In this document: positions 50,057 to 60,952 of the stretch, piece by piece
Numbering within the stretch: position 1 is the first letter of the stretch
How the letters are laid out: each line of letters opens with the position of its first letter
Source of the DNA: Escherichia coli
GTDB taxonomy: Bacteria; Pseudomonadota; Gammaproteobacteria; Enterobacterales; Enterobacteriaceae
Reading direction: 5' to 3' (one strand)
DNA length: 64,000 nt
Assembly (NCBI RefSeq): GCF_003018255.1
Contig: NZ_CP027440.1
Notes under the pieces: generated by a model
What the model saw: the letters and a program-made list of their open reading frames with translations, nothing else
What the model was told of the DNA's origin: nothing
Databases searched by the model: none
Translations under genes and position numbers: made by a program

Positions 50057-50992
50057 TTATTTCACTTCAACCACATTCAGCCGTAACTCATCCAACTGAT
50101 TTTCATCTTCTTCAGGCTGCCAACCCGCCGGTTGTAGAGGGATCTCTTCGCGATCAAACGCCAGATCACCCCCGTTAACCACTTCAGAACCGTGGGTAAT
50201 ACCTTTGAAATCGAACAGGTTGGTATCGCACAGATGCGACGGCACCACATTCTGCATCGCGCTGAACATCGTCTCGATACGCCCTGGATAACGTTTATCC
50301 CAGTCACGCAACATGTCAGCAATCACCTGACGTTGCAGGTTAGGCTGTGAACCGCACAGGTTGCACGGAATAATCGGGAACGCTTTTGCATCGGCAAAGC
50401 GCTGAATATCTTTCTCGCGGCAGTAGGCCAGCGGGCGAATCACGATATGTTTGCCATCATCGCTCATCAGTTTCGGAGGCATACCTTTCATCTTGCCGCC
50501 GTAGAACATATTTAAGAACAACGTTTGCAGGATATCGTCACGATGGTGACCCAGCGCGATCTTCGTCGCTCCCAGTTCCGTTGCGGTACGATAAAGGATA
50601 CCGCGACGAAGACGAGAACACAGTGAGCAAGTGGTTTTGCCCTCCGGAATCTTCTCTTTCACGATACCGTAAGTGTTCTCTTCCACAATCTTGTACTCAA
50701 CGCCCAGCTTTTCAAGATACTCGGGCAGAACGTGTTCCGGAAAGCCCGGTTGCTTTTGATCGAGGTTAACAGCCACCAGCGAAAAATTGATTGGCGCGCT
50801 TTGCTGCAAATTGCGCAGAATTTCCAGCATGGTATAGCTATCTTTACCCCCGGAGAGGCAAACCATGATGCGATCGCCTTCTTCAATCATATTGAAGTCA
50901 GCAATGGCTTCGCCCACGTTACGACGCAGGCGTTTTTGTAATTTGTTCAGGTTGTATATTTCTTTCTTCGTATTCTTTTGATTTTCTTGCAT
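50057..50992 (-). CDS. ttcA: tRNA-cytidine(32) 2-sulfurtransferase TtcA
   Basis: 311-aa ORF with PP-loop SGGKDS and CxxC pairs; Rac-type integrase immediately adjacent to its 5' end. Confidence 0.92.
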
Positions 50993-51043
50993 TATTTCAG
51001 TTCTCTGGTACTAAATGGGGCAAATTGGGGGCAAACTTTGCAA

Positions 51044-52279
51044 CTACGATAACCGCGCATTCAACATGGCTACCTGTTCGTCGTTCATGTCATCAATCCA
51101 CATACCGTAAATTTCATACACCATCTGCGCAGTTTCATGCCCCATCTGGCTGGCTATAAACGCCGGGTTCGCTCCTGCCGTCAACAGCCAGCAGGCAAAA
51201 GTATGCCGCGTATGGTACGGATTACGGCGGCGAATACCAGCACGTTTTACTGCTGCATTCCATCTCGCACCCAAACTGCTTACCGAGTAATAAGGTTTCT
51301 GTTTTCCGTTACACACTCTGGGCATGAAAACAAAATGCAGTTTTTGCTTTTCGGTTCTGCCGTACTCCCGATGATAAAAAGTGATTTCGCTTTTGCGATG
51401 ATGCCCGGTCAGTTTGTATTGCTCCTTCAGTGCTTCAAGAGCAGGCTGCAGTAGTGTTACCGTCCGGATCCCCGCATTTGTTTTTGGGGGACCGAACATA
51501 TCAAGTATCGTCAGGTTTCTTCTGACATTCACAACTCCCTTCTCGAAATCCACATCCTCCCACGCCAGAGCAGCCAGTTCCCCGTGACGAAGCCCGGAGT
51601 ATACGGCAAATTTCCACAAGTTCTGGCTCTGTCCTTTTTCACTTTCCATTAATGCATTGAATTCTGTTTTAGATAACGGGTCAGGCTTTATTCTGTTTCT
51701 CTGTAATTTTTTTACTCCTTCAAATGGTTTGGTTGATATAAATCCCGACTGATACGCAAAACGTAACAACGAACAGAGCAGGGCGATATAATTATCAACT
51801 GTGCGCACGGTTCTTCCTTTTTTGTTGGATCTTGGATTATCTAGGTAAAGCGTTTCTCCATGCAGCAGTTCATTCCGGTAGTTTAAGATATCGCTATAAC
51901 GAATATGCGATATCGGGGTACTCTCACAAATTATTATCCTGAGTGTTTTTAATTGTGATTTCGTTTTCTTCATTGTGTTTGTTGTTAACTCTGTTTCTTT
52001 AATTTTTGTCCAGATATCACAAAGCTCCCCGAACGTTTTTATGACCCTCGTTGTCACCATTTTTGCCCCAGTGCTGGACTGGGGAAAACGTCTTAAATAC
52101 TCAAACTCACCGGAATTGATTTCATGAACTATCAACGCTCTTAAATTCCCGGCTTTTTTAATGTTACTGTTAGTAACCTCCCAGCCTTTCAATGTTTCCC
52201 GACATCGTTTTCCTCGAAACATGAACCAGATGCGAATGTATTTACCTCGAATCTCGACACCTGTTGGTAATTTAGACAT
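51044..52279 (-). CDS. intR: Rac-type prophage integrase (tyrosine recombinase)
   Basis: 411-aa ORF with C-terminal catalytic region (...HTRHTFACWLLTAGANPAFIASQMGHETAQMVYEIYGMW...). Confidence 0.9.
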   Translation of the reverse strand: MSKLPTGVEIRGKYIRIWFMFRGKRCRETLKGWEVTNSNIKKAGNLRALIVHEINSGEFEYLRRFPQSSTGAKMVTTRVIKTFGELCDIWTKIKETELTTNTMKKTKSQLKTLRIIICESTPISHIRYSDILNYRNELLHGETLYLDNPRSNKKGRTVRTVDNYIALLCSLLRFAYQSGFISTKPFEGVKKLQRNRIKPDPLSKTEFNALMESEKGQSQNLWKFAVYSGLRHGELAALAWEDVDFEKGVVNVRRNLTILDMFGPPKTNAGIRTVTLLQPALEALKEQYKLTGHHRKSEITFYHREYGRTEKQKLHFVFMPRVCNGKQKPYYSVSSLGARWNAAVKRAGIRRRNPYHTRHTFACWLLTAGANPAFIASQMGHETAQMVYEIYGMWIDDMNDEQVAMLNARLS

Positions 52280-52280
52280 A

Positions 52281-52496
52281 TCATGAGTCTTTGATAAACT
52301 GATTTATCTTTGGATAGTTGTACCAGATAATTCCTCGCTTACTGTCTGGCTTCCCTAAAGGAGATACTCGTTTGAAGTGGAAGCCTTCCACCCAACAGTT
52401 CTGGCGGTATGCTTCAATTTGTCTGGCCCCCAGACCAGTGCGAAGCATCAGGCCGTATTCAACCATCCACTCTTCATTAAAGATTACTTGTGCCAT
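52281..52496 (-). CDS. xisR: Prophage excisionase (YdaQ/XisR-like)
   Basis: ORF 52281..52520(-); start at [21 protein letters not shown] (71 aa); 1 nt upstream of the int start. Confidence 0.8.
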
Positions 52497-52595
52497 CGCA
52501 TTACCTCTGGCAGGCGCCAATGTTAGACTTAAATTGACGCCCGATGTTGATTATTAATAATCAGCTATGAAGTTTTAATTTGAATACAATGCAAT

Positions 52596-52856
52596 TCACG
52601 AGGACTGAAGTTTCTCGCAATTAAAATTTATCAGTTTTACTTTCTGCTCTCTGGAAACGCCTGCTTCTTTTTTACCTGAGAGCATTTTTTCGCATTCTGA
52701 TTTAGTTAGTTTATATTTTGAATATCTTGTCCAGTTAGTAGGAGTGCCACCTTCCTTTTCAATAGTGGCGGTAATTTTATACATGAACACCTCCATTATT
52801 ATTTCCAGTGGTTCGTTTATTCCATCTTTCGAGTGCTTCTTTTTCACTTCCACCAT
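52596..52856 (-). CDS. ydaC: Rac prophage protein YdaC-like (DUF1187); start codon uncertain
   Basis: ORF containing MYKITATIEKEGGTPTNWTRYSKYKLTKSECEKML; synteny with int/xis/lar. Confidence 0.6.
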   Translation of the reverse strand: MVEVKKKHSKDGINEPLEIIMEVFMYKITATIEKEGGTPTNWTRYSKYKLTKSECEKMLSGKKEAGVSREQKVKLINFNCEKLQSS

Positions 52857-52971
52857 AACCGGTTCGGGATTCGCATCCGTTACACTTCGCTCGGTAATAT
52901 CCTGAAATGGCTTTCACCGTTACTGATGGACAACCACAAAATGGACATGGTTTAACATTGTCATATCTCAT
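52777..52971 (-). CDS. ralR: Restriction alleviation protein Lar (RalR)
   Basis: ORF 52777..53010(-); start at MRYDNVKPCPFCGCPSVTVKAISGYYRAKCNGCESRTG (64 aa, zinc-ribbon-like Cys pairs). Confidence 0.8.
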   Translation of the reverse strand: MRYDNVKPCPFCGCPSVTVKAISGYYRAKCNGCESRTGYGGSEKEALERWNKRTTGNNNGGVHV

Positions 52972-53027
52972 AATTTTTCTCATAAAAAATATTTCAAGTT
53001 GGCGGTGCATTACACCGCCAGGCTGAA

Positions 53028-53843
<816 letters not shown>

Positions 53844-53909
53844 ATTTTATAACCCAGAACGGGCGTCAGAAATGACGCCTTTTTTATTGCAGAAAAGCGA
53901 GAGGTAATT

Positions 53910-54509
53910 ATGCGTAAACTTTATGCCGCCATTTTGTCCGCAGCCATTTGTCTGGCCGTATCCGGTGCGCCTGCATGGGCGTCTGAACATCAGTCCACGC
54001 TGAGCGCGGGGTATCTTCATGCCCGGACGAACGTTCCCGGCAGTGATGATCTGAACGGGATTAACGTGAAATACCGTTATGAGTTTACGGACACACTGGG
54101 GATGGTGACGTCATTCAGCTATGCAGGAGACAAGAATCGTCAGCTGACCCGTTACAGCGATACCCGCTGGCATGAAGATTCCGTTCGTAACCGCTGGTTC
54201 AGCGTAATGGCGGGGCCGTCTGTGCGCGTGAATGAATGGTTCAGCGCGTATGCGATGGCGGGTGTGGCTTACAGCCGTGTGTCGACTTTTTCCGGGGATT
54301 ATATCCGCGTAACTGACAATAAGGGGAAAACGCACGATGTGCTGACCGGAAGTGATGACGGTCGCCACAGCAACACGTCTCTGGCGTGGGGGGCTGGCGT
54401 GCAGTTTAACCCGACCGAATCCGTGGCCATTGATATTGCTTATGAAGGCTCCGGCAGTGGTGACTGGCGCACTGACGGTTTCATCGTGGGTGTCGGTTAT
54501 AAATTCTGA
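53910..54509 (+). CDS. lom: Lom-like outer membrane protein (Ail/Lom/OmpX beta-barrel family)
   Basis: 199-aa ORF with signal peptide (AICLAVSGAPAWA) and C-terminal ...VGVGYKF. Confidence 0.85.
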   Translation: MRKLYAAILSAAICLAVSGAPAWASEHQSTLSAGYLHARTNVPGSDDLNGINVKYRYEFTDTLGMVTSFSYAGDKNRQLTRYSDTRWHEDSVRNRWFSVMAGPSVRVNEWFSAYAMAGVAYSRVSTFSGDYIRVTDNKGKTHDVLTGSDDGRHSNTSLAWGAGVQFNPTESVAIDIAYEGSGSGDWRTDGFIVGVGYKF

Positions 54510-54528
54510 TTAGCCAGGTAACACAGTG

Positions 54529-54557
54529 TTATGACAGCCCGCCGGTTCAGGCGGGCT
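54529..54557 (+). terminator. Rho-independent terminator after lom
   Basis: Hairpin gcccgcc-ggttcag-gcgggc followed by tttttt. Confidence 0.7.
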
Positions 54558-54567
54558 TTTTTGTGGG

Positions 54568-57500
54568 GTGAATATGGCAGTAAAGATTTCAGGTGTACTG
54601 AAAGACGGTGCAGGTAAACCGGTACAGAACTGTACAATCCAGCTGAAAGCAAAACGTAACAGCACCACGGTGGTGGTGAACACGGTGGCCTCAGAAAATC
54701 CGGATGAAGCCGGGCGTTACAGCATGGACGTTGAGTACGGTCAGTACAGCGTTATTCTGTTGGTGGAAGGATTCCCGCCGTCACATGCCGGGACCATCAC
54801 CGTGTATGAAGATTCCCGACCCGGTACGCTGAATGATTTTCTCGGTGCCATGACGGAGGATGATGCCCGTCCGGAGGCTCTGCGCCGTTTTGAACTGATG
54901 GTGGAAGAGGTGGCGCGTAACGCGTCCGCGGTGGCACAGAACACGGCAGCCGCGAAGAAATCAGCCAGCGATGCCAGCACATCAGCCCGTGAGGCGGCAA
55001 CCCATGCGACTGATGCTGCAGATTCAGCACGTGCAGCCAGCACGTCAGCCGGACAGGCCGCTTCGTCGGCTCAGTCAGCGTCTTCCAGCGCAGGAACGGC
55101 ATCAACAAAGGCCACTGAAGCCTCAAAAAGTGCTGCCGCTGCAGAGTCCTCAAAAAGCGCGGCGGCTACCAGTGCCGGTGCGGCGAAAACGTCAGAAACG
55201 AATGCGGCAGCGTCACAACAATCAGCAGCCACTTCTGCATCCACCGCGACCACGAAAGCGTCAGAAGCTGCCACCTCAGCCCGGGATGCGTCGGCCTCAA
55301 AAGAGGCAGCGAAATCATCAGAAACGAACGCATCATCAAGTGCCAGTAGTGCAGCTTCCTCGGCAACGGCGGCAGGAAATTCCGCGAAGGCCGCAAAAAC
55401 GTCTGAGACGAATGCAGATAACAGCGCACAGGCGGCAGCAGACTCACAAACTGCATCAGCAAACTCCGCGACAGCAGCCAAAAAATCAGAAACCAACGCG
55501 AAAAATAGCGAGGCAGCAGCAAAGAGCAGCGAAACCAACGCTAAAGCCAGCGAAACTAATGCTAAATCCAGTGAAACAAACGCGGCGAAATCTGCGGCGG
55601 ACGCACTTAATTATCGCAACCAGGCGCAAGTAATTGTTGGCGATAATATCGGTCTTGGTGAAGTTGCCATGACCTGCACTGATATCTCTGTTGAGCCATC
55701 AGGTTATATTGGATTTGTCAGGATTTACATCTCAGCGAAAGGTTATCCATCAGTAGCGTCTAGTGCCGGTGATAATCTTATTTCTGGTTATATAGTTAGA
55801 TCAGAAGTGTCAACAAAAAGATATTCCGGTCTATTTGTTGGTTCAGATACAAAATCATTGTATTCGTACATTTACAGCCAAAGTTCTGGCCCGCAATGGA
55901 TACGTCATACCCGCAGAGATGAATTAAGCCGCTTTGGTCAAAATGAATCAACAACTCGTATGTATGGTCCAACTGGTGATCGTTTCTTTGAAATCCATAC
56001 TAACGGGAGTTGGGGAGTTTATGATTCTTCTTCTGGACAATGGTCTCCGTTAGGTTTAGCCCAGGGCGGTACTGGTGGAAGAACTATCGAGCAAGCACGT
56101 GCGAACTTGCGGGTAATGTATGAGCAAAAAGCTGGCCTTGCTAATACTGACCTAAACACCCTTACCGGTGAATATTCTGGTTTCTATCAACAACCAACGA
56201 GCGCTTACGCAACAGAAGAATTAAATTACCCAATCGGTCTGGCGGGCGCTTTAATAGTGCTCCAAACGAGAGCCAACACTGCTTCTTCCTGCGTTCAGGT
56301 GTACTACCCTTATAATAATCCGGGAATTACTTATAGACGAATATATGAAGGAGGAAGCGGTACCTGGTCTGAATGGAAGAGAGATGTATCAACAGAAAGG
56401 GTTGAAGAGGGAAAAGAAACAACTTACGTATATTCTACGTATTCTTCAGGCGCACCACGCTTACAGGTTTCCAAATCTGGTTTGTGGGGTTGTCATAATG
56501 GCACTGGCTGGTTGCCATTAGCTGTTGGGCAAGGAGGTACAGGTGCGACAACAGTAGAAGATGCGCGAAACAACTTAAGTCTTGGCGAAAGTAGCGCAGT
56601 TAAATTTAAAAACCTTACTTTAACCGAAGCGCTCGACACGACATTAGGACTGCTTACAAAAACAGGACGAGACTGGAACACGCAGCATACTGATAACATT
56701 AATAAATTTATACCAATTGCAGGCAGTACAAACGGCCCGGCAGGTTCTATGGTTCTTGGCGGCATTCATGTTCAATTTAGTAAAAATTATGCTGTGCAGT
56801 TCGGAGGCCGCAATTCCGGTTTTTGGGGAAGAACAATTGAAAATGGAACGACGCAGGAATGGAAGAAATTACTAACAGTAGACGATCTCAATTCATCTAC
56901 CGATCTTGCTGTCAGGTCATTAACCACATCTAACCCGGTAAAATCTGGCGGAGGGCGAATTGATGTCCTTGGAAGCACGTCAGACTATAGCAAAATGGAT
57001 TGCTTTGTACGTGGGTTTGATAGCACCGGTAATTCTCTCGCGTGGGCGTTGGGTTCATCAGTCGGCGTAAGTAAGATGCTGTCGCTAAAAAATTTCTTTA
57101 GCGGAGCTGAGATACTGTTAAATGGTAATGACGGCGCGGTTCAACTCAAAACAGGTGCTGTTAACGGGGCTAAAGCGCAGGCGCTCACTATCAACAAGGA
57201 TGAGGTTAACTCAACTGTTGATTTAACTCTTACAAAACAAACAGGGACTGGAAATCGTTTTGTTTTACAGAACTTAGGTAATACAGAACTATCATTTGCC
57301 GCAAAAGTATGGGGATCAAGTGATCGACAAAACGTTTTTGAGGTTGGAACGTCTGCTGCGTATCTGTTTTATGCGCAAAAAACGTCAGCAGGCCAGTTGT
57401 TTGATGTAAATGGCGCTATTAATTGCACAACGCTGAATCAGTCATCAGACCGCGACCTTAAAGACGATATTCTCGTTATCAGCGACGCGACGAAAGCAAT

Positions 57501-57879
57501 CCGTAAAATGAACGGATACACCTACACGCTCAGGGAAAACGGGATGCCTTATGCTGGCGTTATTGCACAGGAAGTAATGGAGGCGATACCAGAAGCTGTG
57601 GGATCGTTTACTCATTACGGTGAAGAGTTGCAGGGACCAACGGTTGACGGCAATGAATTACGTGAAGAAACACGTTATCTGAATGTTGACTACGCCGCCG
57701 TGACGGGGTTACTTGTTCAGGTCGCCCGTGAAACAGATGGTCGCGTTACCGCGCTGGAAGAGGAAAACATAACGCTACGTAAAAATCTGGCAACAGCAGG
57801 CACCCGGATCAGCACTCTGGAAAATCAGGTAAGCGAACTGGTTGCACTTGTCGGGCAGTTAACAGGAAGCGAACATTGA
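54568..57879 (+). CDS. stf: Side tail fiber protein (lambda Stf-like N-terminus, Ala/Ser/Thr-rich repeat shaft, C-terminal intramolecular-chaperone/S74-like domain)
   Basis: 1103-aa ORF; N-terminus MAVKISGVLKDGAGKPVQNCTIQLKAK...; SETNA-type repeats across 55050-55620; C-terminus SSDRDLKDDILVISDATKAIRKMNGYTY plus coiled coil. Confidence 0.85.
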   Translation: MNMAVKISGVLKDGAGKPVQNCTIQLKAKRNSTTVVVNTVASENPDEAGRYSMDVEYGQYSVILLVEGFPPSHAGTITVYEDSRPGTLNDFLGAMTEDDARPEALRRFELMVEEVARNASAVAQNTAAAKKSASDASTSAREAATHATDAADSARAASTSAGQAASSAQSASSSAGTASTKATEASKSAAAAESSKSAAATSAGAAKTSETNAAASQQSAATSASTATTKASEAATSARDASASKEAAKSSETNASSSASSAASSATAAGNSAKAAKTSETNADNSAQAAADSQTASANSATAAKKSETNAKNSEAAAKSSETNAKASETNAKSSETNAAKSAADALNYRNQAQVIVGDNIGLGEVAMTCTDISVEPSGYIGFVRIYISAKGYPSVASSAGDNLISGYIVRSEVSTKRYSGLFVGSDTKSLYSYIYSQSSGPQWIRHTRRDELSRFGQNESTTRMYGPTGDRFFEIHTNGSWGVYDSSSGQWSPLGLAQGGTGGRTIEQARANLRVMYEQKAGLANTDLNTLTGEYSGFYQQPTSAYATEELNYPIGLAGALIVLQTRANTASSCVQVYYPYNNPGITYRRIYEGGSGTWSEWKRDVSTERVEEGKETTYVYSTYSSGAPRLQVSKSGLWGCHNGTGWLPLAVGQGGTGATTVEDARNNLSLGESSAVKFKNLTLTEALDTTLGLLTKTGRDWNTQHTDNINKFIPIAGSTNGPAGSMVLGGIHVQFSKNYAVQFGGRNSGFWGRTIENGTTQEWKKLLTVDDLNSSTDLAVRSLTTSNPVKSGGGRIDVLGSTSDYSKMDCFVRGFDSTGNSLAWALGSSVGVSKMLSLKNFFSGAEILLNGNDGAVQLKTGAVNGAKAQALTINKDEVNSTVDLTLTKQTGTGNRFVLQNLGNTELSFAAKVWGSSDRQNVFEVGTSAAYLFYAQKTSAGQLFDVNGAINCTTLNQSSDRDLKDDILVISDATKAIRKMNGYTYTLRENGMPYAGVIAQEVMEAIPEAVGSFTHYGEELQGPTVDGNELREETRYLNVDYAAVTGLLVQVARETDGRVTALEEENITLRKNLATAGTRISTLENQVSELVALVGQLTGSEH

Positions 57880-57930
57880 TATCCTTCAAGCCCTGAAGGA
57901 GGCTGTTCCTGGTACGTTCAGACTGTTGTT

Positions 57931-58086
57931 GAGCTGGAAATCGCAACGGAGGAAGAAACTTCGTTGCTGGAAGTCTGGAAAAAGTATCGGGTGTTGCTGA
58001 ACCGTGTTGATACATCAACTGCACCTGATGTTGATTGGCCAGCAGCACCGAAGTGTAATTCATTAGAACTCATCACCTGTGAATAA
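57931..58086 (+). pseudogene. tfa: tfa (tail fiber assembly protein) 3' remnant, copy 1
   Basis: Frame 57883-58086 translates ...[50 protein letters not shown], matching the last about 40 aa of lambda Tfa; no N-terminal part. Confidence 0.6.
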
Positions 58087-58689
58087 TATCTGTTTTTGAG
58101 TAAGTTAGTAATAATCACTTAAATGTGTTATGAGTTTGTTGAGGCGTGATTTGCAATAGGATAGAGAGTACGATTATGGATTGAGAATAAGAAAGCGCCA
58201 TGAAAGAGTTTCATGGCGAGTACATAAACGTACAAAATATGATGAAAGTAGAGTGGCATAAGCCACTATGTTAACTTATAGCAATAGGGAAGATAAGTAA
58301 ATAATATTTCTTGAGTATAGTGTAAGTCGTTCATTGTAAAGCGTTAATGTTATCTATATTGTTTATCTTAAAATAAGGTGTATAAACCAAACTTTTGAGC
58401 TAAAAGTTTAAAGAGTATTAGTGCAAAAATAATGTTTAATAAGATAATCAATTTGCTTTGTATCTTCATTTCGAAAGATTGCTAAGTAACGTTAATTACC
58501 AAAACGATAGATCAGAATTATCTTAGAGTCAATGACTTTAGGTTTGTTTATAATGTAAATATTTTCTATTTGTTATAAGTTTTCTTAATATAGTCACCCA
58601 TGCAACTTGTTCCGTGTGGAGATTAAAGGTTAAAATTTAATGCGAAGATGGAATTATATTATATTTGTTATAATTAATTTAACCTTAAC

Positions 58690-58785
58690 ATCGTTGCTGG
58701 CGGCATGGAAGAAATATCGGGTCTTGCTGATGTCGTGTTGGCACTTCCTTAGTGCCGGATATCGAGTGGCCAGCTGCACCTATAG
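58690..58785 (+). pseudogene. tfa: tfa 3' remnant, copy 2 (frameshifted)
   Basis: [13 protein letters not shown] and, in another frame, PDIEWPAAP; diverged paralog of the 57931-58086 fragment. Confidence 0.5.
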
Positions 58786-58987
58786 GGTAAAAATATAGTT
58801 CTATATGGGAGCGCTATTTTTACAATATAAATGCTGAACGGAAGAATCTAACCAGTTACAAAAAACATAGTTATGTAATCCAGTTGCCTGGGCATGCGTG
58901 TGATGTTGATAGCTATTACTGTATCTTCCGTTCACTTACCTTATTGTGAACAGTTATATATAATTTGATCTGCTCTTATTCAGCCTG

Positions 58988-60190
58988 CTAGGCTGCTGTA
59001 AATCTTCGATACTTTCTTAACATAAAGATCATGATTAGAATAATTGAAAGTAAGTAAACAATCCAAATGGTGATATTTCGTTCAATTAAAAAGCTACCAA
59101 TTCCGCCGATCACTGAAGGAATCACCAGAGAAGCGGCCCCCATTAACGCAGATGTGGCACCCAGACTGGTACGTTGGCTGGACATAGTTAGGTAAGTATA
59201 AAGTGATTCGAACATACCTCCGGCAAACATCAAAACAATGAAGAATAATATAAAAACATTGACATGATGAACGAATATTATTAGCGGAGTGCACAATACG
59301 ATAAATGAAGCAATGAGCTTCAGCCATAAACTCAAAATTTGTGGTGCAGACCGCTTCTTAAGTAGTTTACCTGATAGTGCTGCTCCCAGCAGAAGGAATC
59401 CTCCAATAATTGATGAGATAACACCAAATTGCGTAGATGAGTATCCATACTTAACCATCAAAATAAATGGGGAAGCTGTGACATAACAATAAATTAGAGA
59501 GAATGAAAGTCCAAGAGAAAGGCAAGGTAGATAAAATCTTGGTTGCTTACTTATCTCTTTGTACGTAAGAAATGATGATTTTAGTGAATATGTAATCCGT
59601 TTTTTATGACTGAGTGTTTCAGGGAAGTTAAAATAGACATACGTTAATGTTACAACAGAATATCCTAATATCATTAGAAAAATTGCACGCCATCCCCATA
59701 CATCATTAATTATTCCTCCCAGCAGTGGAGAAGCAATAGGCACGACACCTTCAATAGTTATGATAATAGCGTACAGTGTAGCAGCCACTGAACCGCGTGT
59801 TACATCACGAACGGCACTAATTGCTGTAACCAGAGTTATTGATATAGAAAGCCCCTGTATGATGCGTATTGTAAGAAACGTACCCAATCCGGTCGAGAGT
59901 GTGAGGCAATATGTTGTCACACAATAAATAATAGCACCTGAAAGCATAATTCTTCGACGACCAATAGAATCAGATAATGGGCCAAAAATTAGCTGTCCAA
60001 AACCTATACAAAGGGTATAAACCATGATAGACAATTGCATGGACGGGATGTTTTGTCTAAATTCTTTTGCGATGTCAGGAATTGAAGGCAAATAAGTGTC
60101 CACACCTAGAATGCCCATAATAGTCAGCAGCGATAGGCCAATAGTAAAGAAAAGTATATTCTTTCTGTGAATAACAACTTGTGATTTCAT
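58988..60190 (-). CDS. MFS transporter, 12-TMS DHA1-like (Bcr/CflA-type) exporter; AT-rich
   Basis: 400-aa polytopic ORF with MFS motif region (GPLSDSIGRRRIMLSG); strongly AT-rich codon usage relative to the core genes. Confidence 0.75.
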   Translation of the reverse strand: MKSQVVIHRKNILFFTIGLSLLTIMGILGVDTYLPSIPDIAKEFRQNIPSMQLSIMVYTLCIGFGQLIFGPLSDSIGRRRIMLSGAIIYCVTTYCLTLSTGLGTFLTIRIIQGLSISITLVTAISAVRDVTRGSVAATLYAIIITIEGVVPIASPLLGGIINDVWGWRAIFLMILGYSVVTLTYVYFNFPETLSHKKRITYSLKSSFLTYKEISKQPRFYLPCLSLGLSFSLIYCYVTASPFILMVKYGYSSTQFGVISSIIGGFLLLGAALSGKLLKKRSAPQILSLWLKLIASFIVLCTPLIIFVHHVNVFILFFIVLMFAGGMFESLYTYLTMSSQRTSLGATSALMGAASLVIPSVIGGIGSFLIERNITIWIVYLLSIILIMIFMLRKYRRFTAA

Positions 60191-60952
60191 TATTTATCAC
60201 CATGAATAAATTAAAAGAATGAAAAAAACTCCATTTAAATGGAAGGAGGTGGATAATTATCGTGTAGGCAATACAACAGAGTTGAAAAGAACTGTCAAAC
60301 TTTTAACTCAAAAAAGTGAGATGTGAATCACAGACATAAAAATCATCTTTTTCAGCCCTATGGTTCAGTTAAATTTGATTGTTATCGTACGAAGGTTTGA
60401 ACGTGTGTGTGCGTATGCGGTATTTTTTCTTGCGAGTGCCGGAGTTATGAGAGCGTTGTATTAACCTTCATAATCTGACCTATTCAATTGATTCCAGTAC
60501 ACCAATGGGTATTTTGGTGTTATGGTATGTGACTCCAAATAAAATGGAGCGTGAACTGATAGTTGTGCGAACAAAAGTCGGACTAGAAACCGCTCGGGTA
60601 CAGTGGCGAATTGGAGTTGGCGACCCAAACTGACCTAGGAACAATCGTTGCAGATCGGACGATTAATTTCATCAGAAATTCCTCGCTAAAAGGTGGCTAT
60701 CACTGTGATGTTAACGTATCTAATTTGTACAAGAAATTTCTGCGGGGGAAAATGAAACCGCAGACTCGTTGTATGCAAAAACGTGCTGCGGCTAACTGGT
60801 GAACTTTCGATAGTGCGGGTATTGAATGATTTCTAGGCGTTATCGATTTTACGTATTTTTTGCATGATAGAATTCGTACCTCCTCCCAACGACCTTCCAT
60901 GGCTTTCCGGACTTCTGTAGGCCGGCGGACGATGCTGTCCTCGGATGTTGTG

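Follow-up and report, generated by a model that had tools for sequence, protein, structure and literature searches.

Side tail fibres of the lambda type are trimers on the virion and make adsorption faster. In a 64,000-nucleotide stretch of Escherichia coli DNA (the window), the side tail fibre gene stf contains an Ala/Ser/Thr-rich stretch with recurrent SETNA motifs, which raises the question of whether this stretch is a low-complexity run of tandem repeats, liable to drift in copy number and to mislead assemblers, or a folded part of the fibre. Based on the findings presented here, we consider it very probable that the SETNA stretch forms the proximal rod of a lambda-type Stf, an alpha-helical coiled coil of three chains and 33 heptads.

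The stf gene and its heptad array

The stf gene is an intact open reading frame on the plus strand (54574..57879) that encodes 1101 aa from an ATG (MAVKISG...). A GTG at 54568 is listed as an alternative, longer start (1103 aa); since the RefSeq homologue WP_015364453.1 measures 3306 nt, which implies the ATG, the start should be the ATG at 54574. The product matches the Pfam family PF08400 (phage_tail_N) at 240.8 bits (cutoff 26.6), as well as PHROG tail fibre families. Its N-terminal collar domain, the tail anchor (54574..54855, plus strand), was delimited by a match to chain 9e7m_Ta of PDB entry 9e7m, which represents residues 1-94 of the Ur-lambda Stf (E = 2.9e-51); gpStfN of lambda comprises residues 1-91 (PMC12617516). 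The C-terminal end of the fibre carries a Peptidase_S74 intramolecular chaperone domain (PF13884, E = 8.6e-12, aa 960-1011; 57445..57600, plus strand), and a Tfa C-terminal remnant is located downstream of stf. The PF08400 collar, the long proximal coiled coil that follows it after a short linker, and a distal part folded by a chaperone (through PF13884, with the downstream Tfa remnant in addition) all agree with a lambda-type Stf, as does the gene order, in which a gpJ C-terminal fragment (53202-53843) is followed by Ail/Lom (53910-54509) and then by stf, the position of the side tail fibre gene in lambdoid tail modules. The gene is a RefSeq-annotated allele with a known domain, the coiled-coil rod being of an ordinary type that has been described before. 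In the surrounding prophage, which is defective, both J and recT are truncated, and stf may never yield a fibre in this host. No Rfam match was obtained across 54500-58300, and no complete E. coli genome covers 80% or more of the 10 kb window segment around stf.

Seven SETNA motifs are present in the stf reading frame (nt 55192-55584), with their Ser residues at aa 209, 251, 279, 307, 321, 328 and 335 as numbered from the GTG at 54568. When the array is shuffled by composition, 0.007 copies are expected, and 0.49 when the heptad columns are kept, none of 20,000 shuffles of the latter kind reaching seven. All six spacings between neighbouring motifs (42, 28, 28, 14, 7 and 7 aa) are multiples of seven, and all seven units fall in the same phase of a longer array, an unbroken series of 33 heptads of the form x-x-S-[A/E]-x-x-A (54913..55605, plus strand; aa 116-346), which constitutes the rod. 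Of these 33 heptads, 28 have Ser in column 3 and 31 have Ala in column 7, while residue identity at lags of 7, 14, 21 and 28 amounts to 0.41-0.48 as compared with 0.21 after shuffling (z = 8-10, with z = 10 at lag 7). Its 231 residues are 71% Ala, Ser or Thr and include no Pro, four Gly and a single aliphatic residue.

The original prediction of tandem SETNA repeats inside stf at 55050-55620 was thus accurate as to the motifs and the gene, while the array starts approximately 137 nt before 55050 and ends at 55605, and only the last three motifs are arranged in tandem. The first four are the plus-strand heptads KTSETNA (55186..55206, heptad 14 of the array), KSSETNA (55312..55332, heptad 20), KTSETNA (55396..55416, heptad 24, at whose last base the homology to lambda stf and K-12 stfR stops) and KKSETNA (55480..55500, heptad 28); at the DNA level they are dispersed 26-nt units, 77-85% alike and 126, 84 and 84 nt apart. 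The sole truly tandem part is the triple KSSETNA KASETNA KSSETNA (55522..55584, plus strand, heptads 30-32). Tandem Repeats Finder accordingly reported one 21-nt array of 2.7 copies with 83% match (55527-55583), picking up only these last units, the full periodicity being visible at the protein level only.

Length variation and mosaic junctions

The length polymorphism expected from repeat number was found to be real; it mostly involves blocks of whole heptads (1, 2, 14 or 15) throughout the array and is not mainly a matter of SETNA copies. Relatives hold 17, 19, 31, 32, 33, 46, 48 or 63 heptads, and those of 31, 33, 46, 48 and 63 heptads leave a remainder of 0 modulo 7. As compared with the 48-heptad type, one allele (L057) carries a duplication of 15 heptads and another (L032) a deletion of 15 heptads at the matching junction, and the two look like reciprocal products; deletions of 14, two and one heptads are also present among the alleles. 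In distant relatives 826 of 845 spacings between neighbouring SExNA motifs are multiples of 7. One protein (P0103), with a SETNA spacing of 41, was considered as an out-of-phase allele and rejected, being a frameshifted metagenome protein.

The smallest step is illustrated by a 21-nt unit (55527..55547, plus strand) which alignment with E. coli EC21Z-097 revealed to be absent from two-copy alleles. The 9-mer CAGCGAAAC stands at the start of this unit and is repeated directly after it, and the resulting junction, an exact 21-nt deletion that turns the SETNA triple into two copies, occurs in 38 of 5426 complete E. coli genomes; the proteins P0016 and P0048 represent the two-copy allele as well. 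Such a copy-number difference between strains, produced by the exact loss of one unit between 9-nt direct repeats, together with the detected 2.7-copy array, is what would be expected of a VNTR or contingency locus, in which tandem repeats prone to slippage often change in copy number and mislead assemblers. This reading is nevertheless improbable, as the tandem units are far from near-identical DNA, agreeing with one another at only 15-16 of 21 nt, exact repeats inside the array reach 11 nt at most, and all 40 listed full-length matches to an 801-nt stretch (97.6-100% identity) span exactly 801 nt. Moreover, the 21-nt unit is in frame, as is every variant seen, which leaves no on/off switching of the kind that defines phase variation, and the one- and two-heptad steps stand beside larger block events.

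For a coiled-coil rod, the restriction to whole heptads would follow from the array itself: it is self-similar in the heptad register only, and insertions of other lengths would strain the coiled coil, so that unequal recombination would give only whole-heptad length variants. Recombination in register would also let different distal modules join. Comparison with lambda stf and StfR provides examples of such joins. Over heptads 1-24 the DNA identity is 88% with lambda stf and 93-97% with StfR-type alleles; heptad by heptad, 17-21 of 21 nt agree with lambda stf and K-12 stfR through heptad 24 and 4-13 of 21 thereafter. Of five distinct mosaic junctions in the array, all but the one at 55239/66 (55185, 55211, 55415/6 and 55547) are no more than 6 nt away from a SETNA heptad, an association with a binomial P of approximately 0.03 as estimated by hand from a small sample in which BLAST extension through the shared motif pulls endpoints to motif ends. 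We offer it as a hypothesis that SETNA units are favoured sites of mosaic junctions.

Chimeric lambda Stf fibres are already in use as delivery vehicles (PMC11338833). For phage engineering the natural alleles provide a rule for fusion points, namely that rod length be kept in whole heptads and distal modules be joined in heptad register.

The array as a probable coiled-coil rod

The recent (2025) structural study of Ur-lambda modelled Stf residues 102-393 as a proximal trimeric coiled coil by means of cryo-EM, cryo-ET and AlphaFold3 (PMC12617516), and the array of the window stf corresponds to this segment. In the current analysis AlphaFold2, run on a single chain with no alignment (pTM 0.30), predicted an alpha-helix over aa 100-358 (GTG numbering; 54865..55641, plus strand) with a break at aa 245-253, the two helices occupying model residues 6-150 and 160-264 at a pLDDT of 83-91 over most of their length. 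The break is probably a fold-back of the modelled monomer. The heptad periodicity is uninterrupted and the helix is predicted, while the core positions a and d of the array lack the hydrophobic residues of a canonical coiled coil, the conserved stripe being formed by Ser and Ala; the array acts like a coiled coil, with a small-residue core. No deposited atomic model of these heptads was found, the PDB entries for lambda Stf covering only residues 1-94.

From these features we infer a spacer function for a trimeric rod. Three Stf chains, each fixed to the tail by its N-terminal collar domain, would wind past the short linker into a single parallel three-helix rope of 33 heptads, in which the near-invariant Ala of column 7 and Ser of column 3 would form a tight core stripe of small residues; columns 4 and 7 could equally well be assigned to a and d. 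K-x-S-E-T-N-A would then be a charged variant of the heptad, whose Lys and Glu, three residues apart, might pair as an intrahelical salt bridge. At 0.148 nm per residue, the value assumed here, the rod is approximately 34 nm in length, and it would hold the distal receptor-binding part about 35-40 nm off the tail.

The view of the region as a shaft was upheld by the in-phase heptads, the predicted helix and the homology to lambda; its description as low-complexity gives way, on the evidence of the lag identities, the AlphaFold2 model and the published structure (PMC12617516), to that of a coiled coil with strict heptad periodicity. An intrinsically disordered low-complexity linker in place of a folded rod might be suspected from the 71% of Ala, Ser and Thr with hydrophobic residues almost absent, from the lack of any Pfam model covering the array heptads, and from the low-complexity filter of BLAST, which seems to mask the array, tblastn matches starting only at query residue 47. 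Disorder is, however, very unlikely given a 7-residue phase that is strict across 231 aa and maintained through duplications and deletions, the absence of Pro from the array, the confidence with which AlphaFold2 predicted helix over most of the stretch and the fact that homologous regions have been observed as rigid triple-helical rods.

Five long ORFs occupy other frames of the same DNA (54741-55633), and their dismissal as spurious in the original prediction was confirmed, permutations of the codons reproducing their lengths. A 220-aa ORF in frame +2 (54971..55633, plus strand) remained open in all 1000 synonymous permutations over 230 of 230 codons; this frame cannot contain a stop because T occupies the second position in just one of the array's codons. 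On the minus strand, a 155-aa ORF in frame -2 (55071..55538) uses the frame of lambda 'orf206b' and is open for 177 codons as compared with 180 +/- 43 in synonymous permutations, and a 118-aa ORF (55166..55522) is open for 124 codons as compared with 83 +/- 27, a length reached in 6.4% of permutations. The remaining two (54797-55153 and 54741-55043, both minus strand) were judged, like the 155-aa frame, from permutations and stop variants. It is hardly credible that any of them, for example the antisense 155-aa ORF, is a real overlapping gene: ORFs of 100-220 aa do occur on both strands, the lambda record J02459 annotates the equivalent ORF, and 119 synonymous against 104 non-synonymous substitutions were counted in the antisense 155-aa frame, yet this excess arises because the wobble position of that frame coincides with that of the sense frame; the sense frame still fits best (136 against 88), and natural alleles include stop-creating variants in every alternative frame. 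None was found to be both conserved and longer than codon composition predicts, and we regard the alternative-frame ORFs as by-products of composition. In annotation the five should not be called genes, and the array should be entered as the proximal coiled coil of Stf.

An assembly artefact, with repeats collapsed or expanded, can be dismissed almost with certainty as the origin of the repeat number in the window. Most database homologues are indeed 'partial' proteins cut at contig ends within stf, but the 801-nt stretch is 100% identical in at least 25 complete genomes (25 of the 40 listed full-length matches, from different hosts) and in the IMG/VR viral contig L002, the alignment to the viable phages mEp460 and PhiR70_1 (95.7-96.4% identity) runs through the tandem SETNA region with no gap, and the DNA units are too diverged for collapse. 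The suspicion that the repeats are a source of assembly error was consequently not substantiated. Contig breaks in stf, common in the databases and seen in draft genomes, fit paralogy among several prophage stf copies (a median of two and up to seven stf places per complete genome, with 8788 places in the 5426 complete genomes), not these repeats.

Related rods in other phages

The heptad is not peculiar to this gene. A family set of 2620 heptads, drawn from cluster representatives at 50% identity, has Ser in column 3 in 91% and Ala in column 7 in 92%; columns 3, 4 and 7 are nearly free of large hydrophobic residues (at most 0.6% in the conserved stripe), and column 7 is devoid of charged residues. 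Lys in column 1 coincides with Glu in column 4 in 477 heptads and with Ala in column 4 in two, counts that include related and duplicated units and hence inflate significance. Judged by sequence, KxSETNA is a widespread, co-varying heptad, and some proteins contain more than 20 tandem copies of K-x-S-E-T-N-A. Whether it constitutes a distinct 'charged brick' of an Ala/Ser-core trimeric coiled coil across the unrelated morphotypes of lambda, T5, T7 and Klebsiella tailspikes is a more speculative proposal, which we consider possible but rather unlikely. If true, the strict phase may let phages tune the reach of their fibres from 31 to 63 heptads (approximately 32-65 nm), and distal receptor-binding modules may be swapped by in-register unequal recombination, with joins often at SETNA. 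A literature search on Ala/Ser heptad quantisation in tail fibres, which did not extend to older subscription papers such as Sandmeier 1994, returned nothing specific.

Among the closest known systems is lambda Stf, with which the window protein shares the N-terminal collar domain, the start of the array, the count of 33 heptads and heptads 1-24. The nine heptads that follow heptad 24 in the window protein, the SETNA triple among them, differ from those of lambda. Lambda Stf possesses a EDIASAVALEDA hinge and a gp37-like tip, both of which are missing from the window stf, whose distal end instead combines a module common to the lateral fibres of T5-like phages with the S74 chaperone. StfR of the E. 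coli K-12 Rac prophage (b1372) likewise follows lom and is nearly identical over heptads 1-24; its rod counts 48 heptads, its hinge is of the lambda type and its chaperone, TfaR, is a separate protein, in contrast to the 33 heptads, the intramolecular S74 chaperone and the mere downstream Tfa remnant of the window.

A PDB sequence search with the array yielded weak matches only (E = 1e-4 to 4e-3), to T7 gp17, 8hqz_d and DpK2; a match to the RNA polymerase II C-terminal repeat was discarded as a compositional false hit. Residues 172-269 of T7 gp17 (E = 0.004) present x-x-S-A-x-x-A heptads and an SE-x-NA unit (GNSASAA HQSEVNA ENSATAS ANSAHLA), and the proximal half-fibre of gp17 has been described as a dynamic triple-helical coiled coil, the rod being called experimentally unresolved. 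As a podovirus fibre, gp17 differs in its N-terminal adaptor, in its shorter rod and in its more canonical hydrophobic and charged heptads.

In 8hqz_d, a T5-like 'L-shaped tail fiber', the SE-x-NA heptads RQSELNA and KISETNA align with the window array, and T5-like lateral fibres are 43-53% identical to the distal module of the window stf. LtfA of DT57C has a long helix, starting at residue 40, that forms a three-helix coiled coil projecting off a dodecameric collar. That collar is a separate protein, LtfC, whereas in the window Stf it is the fibre's own N-terminal domain.

Finally, residues 120-197 of DpK2 from Klebsiella phage RAD2 (7LZJ) align with the rod end and the transition that follows it (E = 1.5e-4), KTSEDNA KSSENAA KNSEVAA ETTRDQIQQIIDNAG being matched to the window's KSSETNA...LNYRNQAQVIVGDNIG. 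The N-terminal bundle of DpK2 is seen by cryo-EM as an extended triple helix, for which the entry has no atomic model; unlike the window Stf, DpK2 is a tailspike whose enzyme domain is a beta-helix.

Heptad periodicity and the SETNA motifs

The SETNA-rich region of stf forms an array of 33 consecutive heptads of the pattern x-x-S-[A/E]-x-x-A on the plus strand (54913-55605; residues 116-346, with Stf numbering starting at the GTG codon at 54568), laid out in rows of seven residues without a single phase break. Serine occupies column 3 in 28 of the 33 heptads and alanine column 7 in 31, and residue identity at lags of 7, 14, 21 and 28 reaches 0.41-0.48 versus 0.21 in shuffles (z = 8-10). Alanine makes up 36% of the array, Ser 23% and Thr 11%; Pro is absent, Gly occurs four times and Val once. 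Repetition at the DNA level is weak, with a mean of 9.2 of 21 nt common to in-register units (11-18 of 21 for the SETNA units) and a longest exact repeat of 11 nt within the array. A single-chain AlphaFold2 model predicts helix over residues 100-358, mostly at pLDDT 83-91, with one break at residues 245-253 that is probably a fold-back of the modelled monomer. At an assumed 0.148 nm per residue the array alone would measure approximately 34 nm, columns 3 and 7 providing a putative tight Ala/Ser core stripe. We infer both the trimeric state of this rod and its exact a/d register.

Seven in-frame SETNA motifs are present in stf (Ser at residues 209, 251, 279, 307, 321, 328 and 335), a number beyond chance since shuffling the array by composition yields 0.007 copies and shuffling that preserves the heptad columns yields 0.49, with seven copies being reached in 0 of 20,000. 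The spacings between the units (42, 28, 28, 14, 7 and 7 aa) are all multiples of seven. The tandem arrangement assigned to them in the original prediction holds for the last three units (55522-55584, plus strand), where Tandem Repeats Finder detected its single 21-nt array (2.7 copies, 83% match); this is the sole tandem part, the remaining four being dispersed 26-nt units that are 77-85% alike. KxSETNA would be the charged version of the heptad, in which Lys and Glu pair from i to i+3 along one helix, and these two residues may form a salt bridge. Pfam holds no model for KxSETNA heptads and no atomic structure of them was found in this analysis.

The stf gene, its reading frames and its setting

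The long plus-strand ORF containing the array (54568-57879, from the GTG start in the ORF listing) begins at the ATG at 54574 in the RefSeq annotation of the identical gene (WP_015364453.1), which yields 1101 aa. Residues 3-136 correspond to the Pfam 'prophage tail fibre N-terminal' domain (240.8 bits) and residues 960-1011 to the Pfam Peptidase_S74 intramolecular chaperone domain; many PHROG tail-fibre families match the protein, the solved collar domain of Ur-lambda Stf (9e7m) matches residues 3-96 (E = 2.9e-51), and a gpJ C-terminal fragment and an Ail/Lom gene lie upstream. These domain and collar matches together with the gpJ/Lom neighbours therefore identify a lambda-type side tail fibre gene, as had been proposed. 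The distal part (55606-57879) differs from that of lambda, ends in the S74 chaperone and resembles T5-like phage lateral tail fibres (43-53% identity), and residues 531-675 match an R-type pyocin fibre region (PDB 6cl5). The 3′ end (56909-57879) has 79-94% in common with alleles whose middle part differs and, judging from these sequences, could serve as a downstream homology arm.

All five long alternative-frame ORFs previously described are present in the ORF listing, and their spurious nature was substantiated: synonymous permutations of stf codons reproduced all observed open lengths (control regions of stf giving only 30-71 open codons), substitution patterns across 75 alleles agree with the stf frame (136 synonymous versus 88 non-synonymous), and stop-creating variants were found in every other frame. 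Because T stands at the second codon position only once in the array, no stop is possible in frame +2, which is open from 54899 to 55630. The 155-aa antisense ORF (55071-55538) occupies the same frame as the historical 'orf206b' of lambda. A practical consequence of these open frames is the existence of frameshifted database entries that fail to terminate. Among relatives of 54574-55650, the entries P0051, P0055, P0094, P0106 and P0103 are frameshifted stf products, such entries running many residues on in a stop-free frame (e.g. '...KNQKPTRKLARQQQ').

The feature is real, its earlier description being partly right and its interpretation largely right with the exception of assembly error. The latter is not supported: the 801-nt stretch is 100% identical in 25 complete genomes and viral contig L002, and the viable phages mEp460 and PhiR70_1 show a gap-free alignment over the SETNA region. 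Most database homologues are 'partial' and end at contig ends (e.g. clusters of 206-218 aa with 555-1193 members), a pattern consistent with multiple stf paralogues within a genome (median of 2 stf places, up to 7) rather than with internal repeats.

The gene is harboured by a defective Rac-like prophage remnant (51044-58100) that commences with an integrase (51044-52279, minus strand), followed in order by a DUF1233 excisionase, a DUF1187 protein, a Lar/RalR protein and a RecT C-terminal fragment (53028-53273, minus strand), which overlaps the gpJ C-terminal fragment (53202-53843, plus strand); Lom, stf and a Tfa C-terminal remnant (about 57928-58080) come next. The early-left region seems to have been joined to the tail-tip gene through the loss of a large internal segment. 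Among the complete E. coli genomes of the collection, none covered at least 80% of the 10 kb at 50500-60500. APEC O78 carries an identical stf allele in a DLP12-like context (ybcV, ybcW and a terminase fragment), which shows that this cassette has passed from one prophage background to another. A 19-nt tandem repeat within the gpJ fragment (53370-53412, 2.3 copies, 84% match) is probably trivial.

Length variation and mosaic junctions

The predicted length polymorphism was indeed observed among alleles, but it is quantised in whole heptads: across 80 viral contigs, K-12 and lambda, array lengths are 31, 33, 46, 48 or 63 heptads, and every one is an exact multiple of seven residues. Such quantisation is accounted for by coiled-coil theory, since a trimeric heptad coil is strained or disrupted when 1-6 residues are inserted (PMC4786415), and also by sequence similarity being confined to the in-register state. 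The sole apparent out-of-phase allele, P0103, was rejected as a frameshifted entry. Viral contig L057 (63 heptads) is the 48-heptad type with a 15-heptad block duplicated in tandem, and from their sequences L057 and L032 (33 heptads) look like reciprocal products because the 15-heptad deletion in the latter matches the duplication at the same junction. A further 15-heptad deletion occurs in L042 with its junction a few codons off, L051 is without two heptads, and the protein relatives P0073 (19 heptads) and P0119 (17 heptads) are without 14, with joins at TSAR[ED]A heptads. Strain EC21Z-097 is without exactly 55527-55547, i.e. one SETNA unit, flanked by 9-nt direct repeats (CAGCGAAAC), and this two-copy junction is found in 38 of 5426 complete E. 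coli genomes. E. coli AR_0369 (NZ_CP027140.1) holds both alleles in different prophage remnants, the three-copy allele identical to the window at 560105-560905 and the two-copy junction at 4341108-4341154.

Homology to lambda/StfR ends at 55415/6, the final base of SETNA heptad 24, beyond which per-heptad identity drops from 17-21 to 4-13 of 21 nt, and that to the 'KEYLDKV' alleles ends at 55547, within the tandem SETNA units. From LNYRNQAQ on, the distal module has 43-62% identity to fibres of mEp460, PhiR70_1 and T5-like phages. That four of five junctions fall at SETNA units is suggestive of preferred joining points, in a statistically weak and biased sample.

Relatives and known rods

A search of 1.84 billion cluster representatives retrieved 849 relatives, some with in-phase runs of up to 68 heptads or more than 20 tandem KxSETNA units. 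Across 2620 of their heptads, Ser occupies column 3 in 91% and Ala column 7 in 92% of cases; large hydrophobic residues are almost absent from columns 3, 4 and 7, and column 7 contains no charged residue. Lysine in column 1 accompanies Glu in column 4 in 477 cases and Ala in two. That KxSETNA is a widespread, co-varying heptad is a side result worth keeping. Five matches to 54865-55650 (P0134, P0135 and P0149-P0151) are of giant size (3400-4400 aa) and match the Ala/Ser heptad rod in 8-15 separate places, P0135 containing 26 SExNA units; they may be giant phage fibres or bacterial surface proteins.

Known fibres that align with the window heptads are T7 gp17 (residues 172-269; SE-x-NA unit HQSEVNA), the 'L-shaped tail fiber' chain 8hqz_d (RQSELNA KISETNA) and the Klebsiella depolymerase DpK2 (KTSEDNA KSSENAA), and triple-helical bundles feature in descriptions of T7 gp17, DpK2 and the related DT57C LtfA. 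The DNA identity of heptads 1-24 is 88% with lambda stf and 93-97% with K-12 stfR-type alleles. Cryo-EM, cryo-ET and AlphaFold3 have defined four parts in Ur-lambda gpStf, namely a collar domain (residues 1-91), a linker (92-101), a proximal coiled coil in a trimer (102-393) and a hinge (394-422) (PMC12617516). The SETNA array is this proximal coiled coil, a known rod of Stf, and RefSeq already annotates the allele that carries it.
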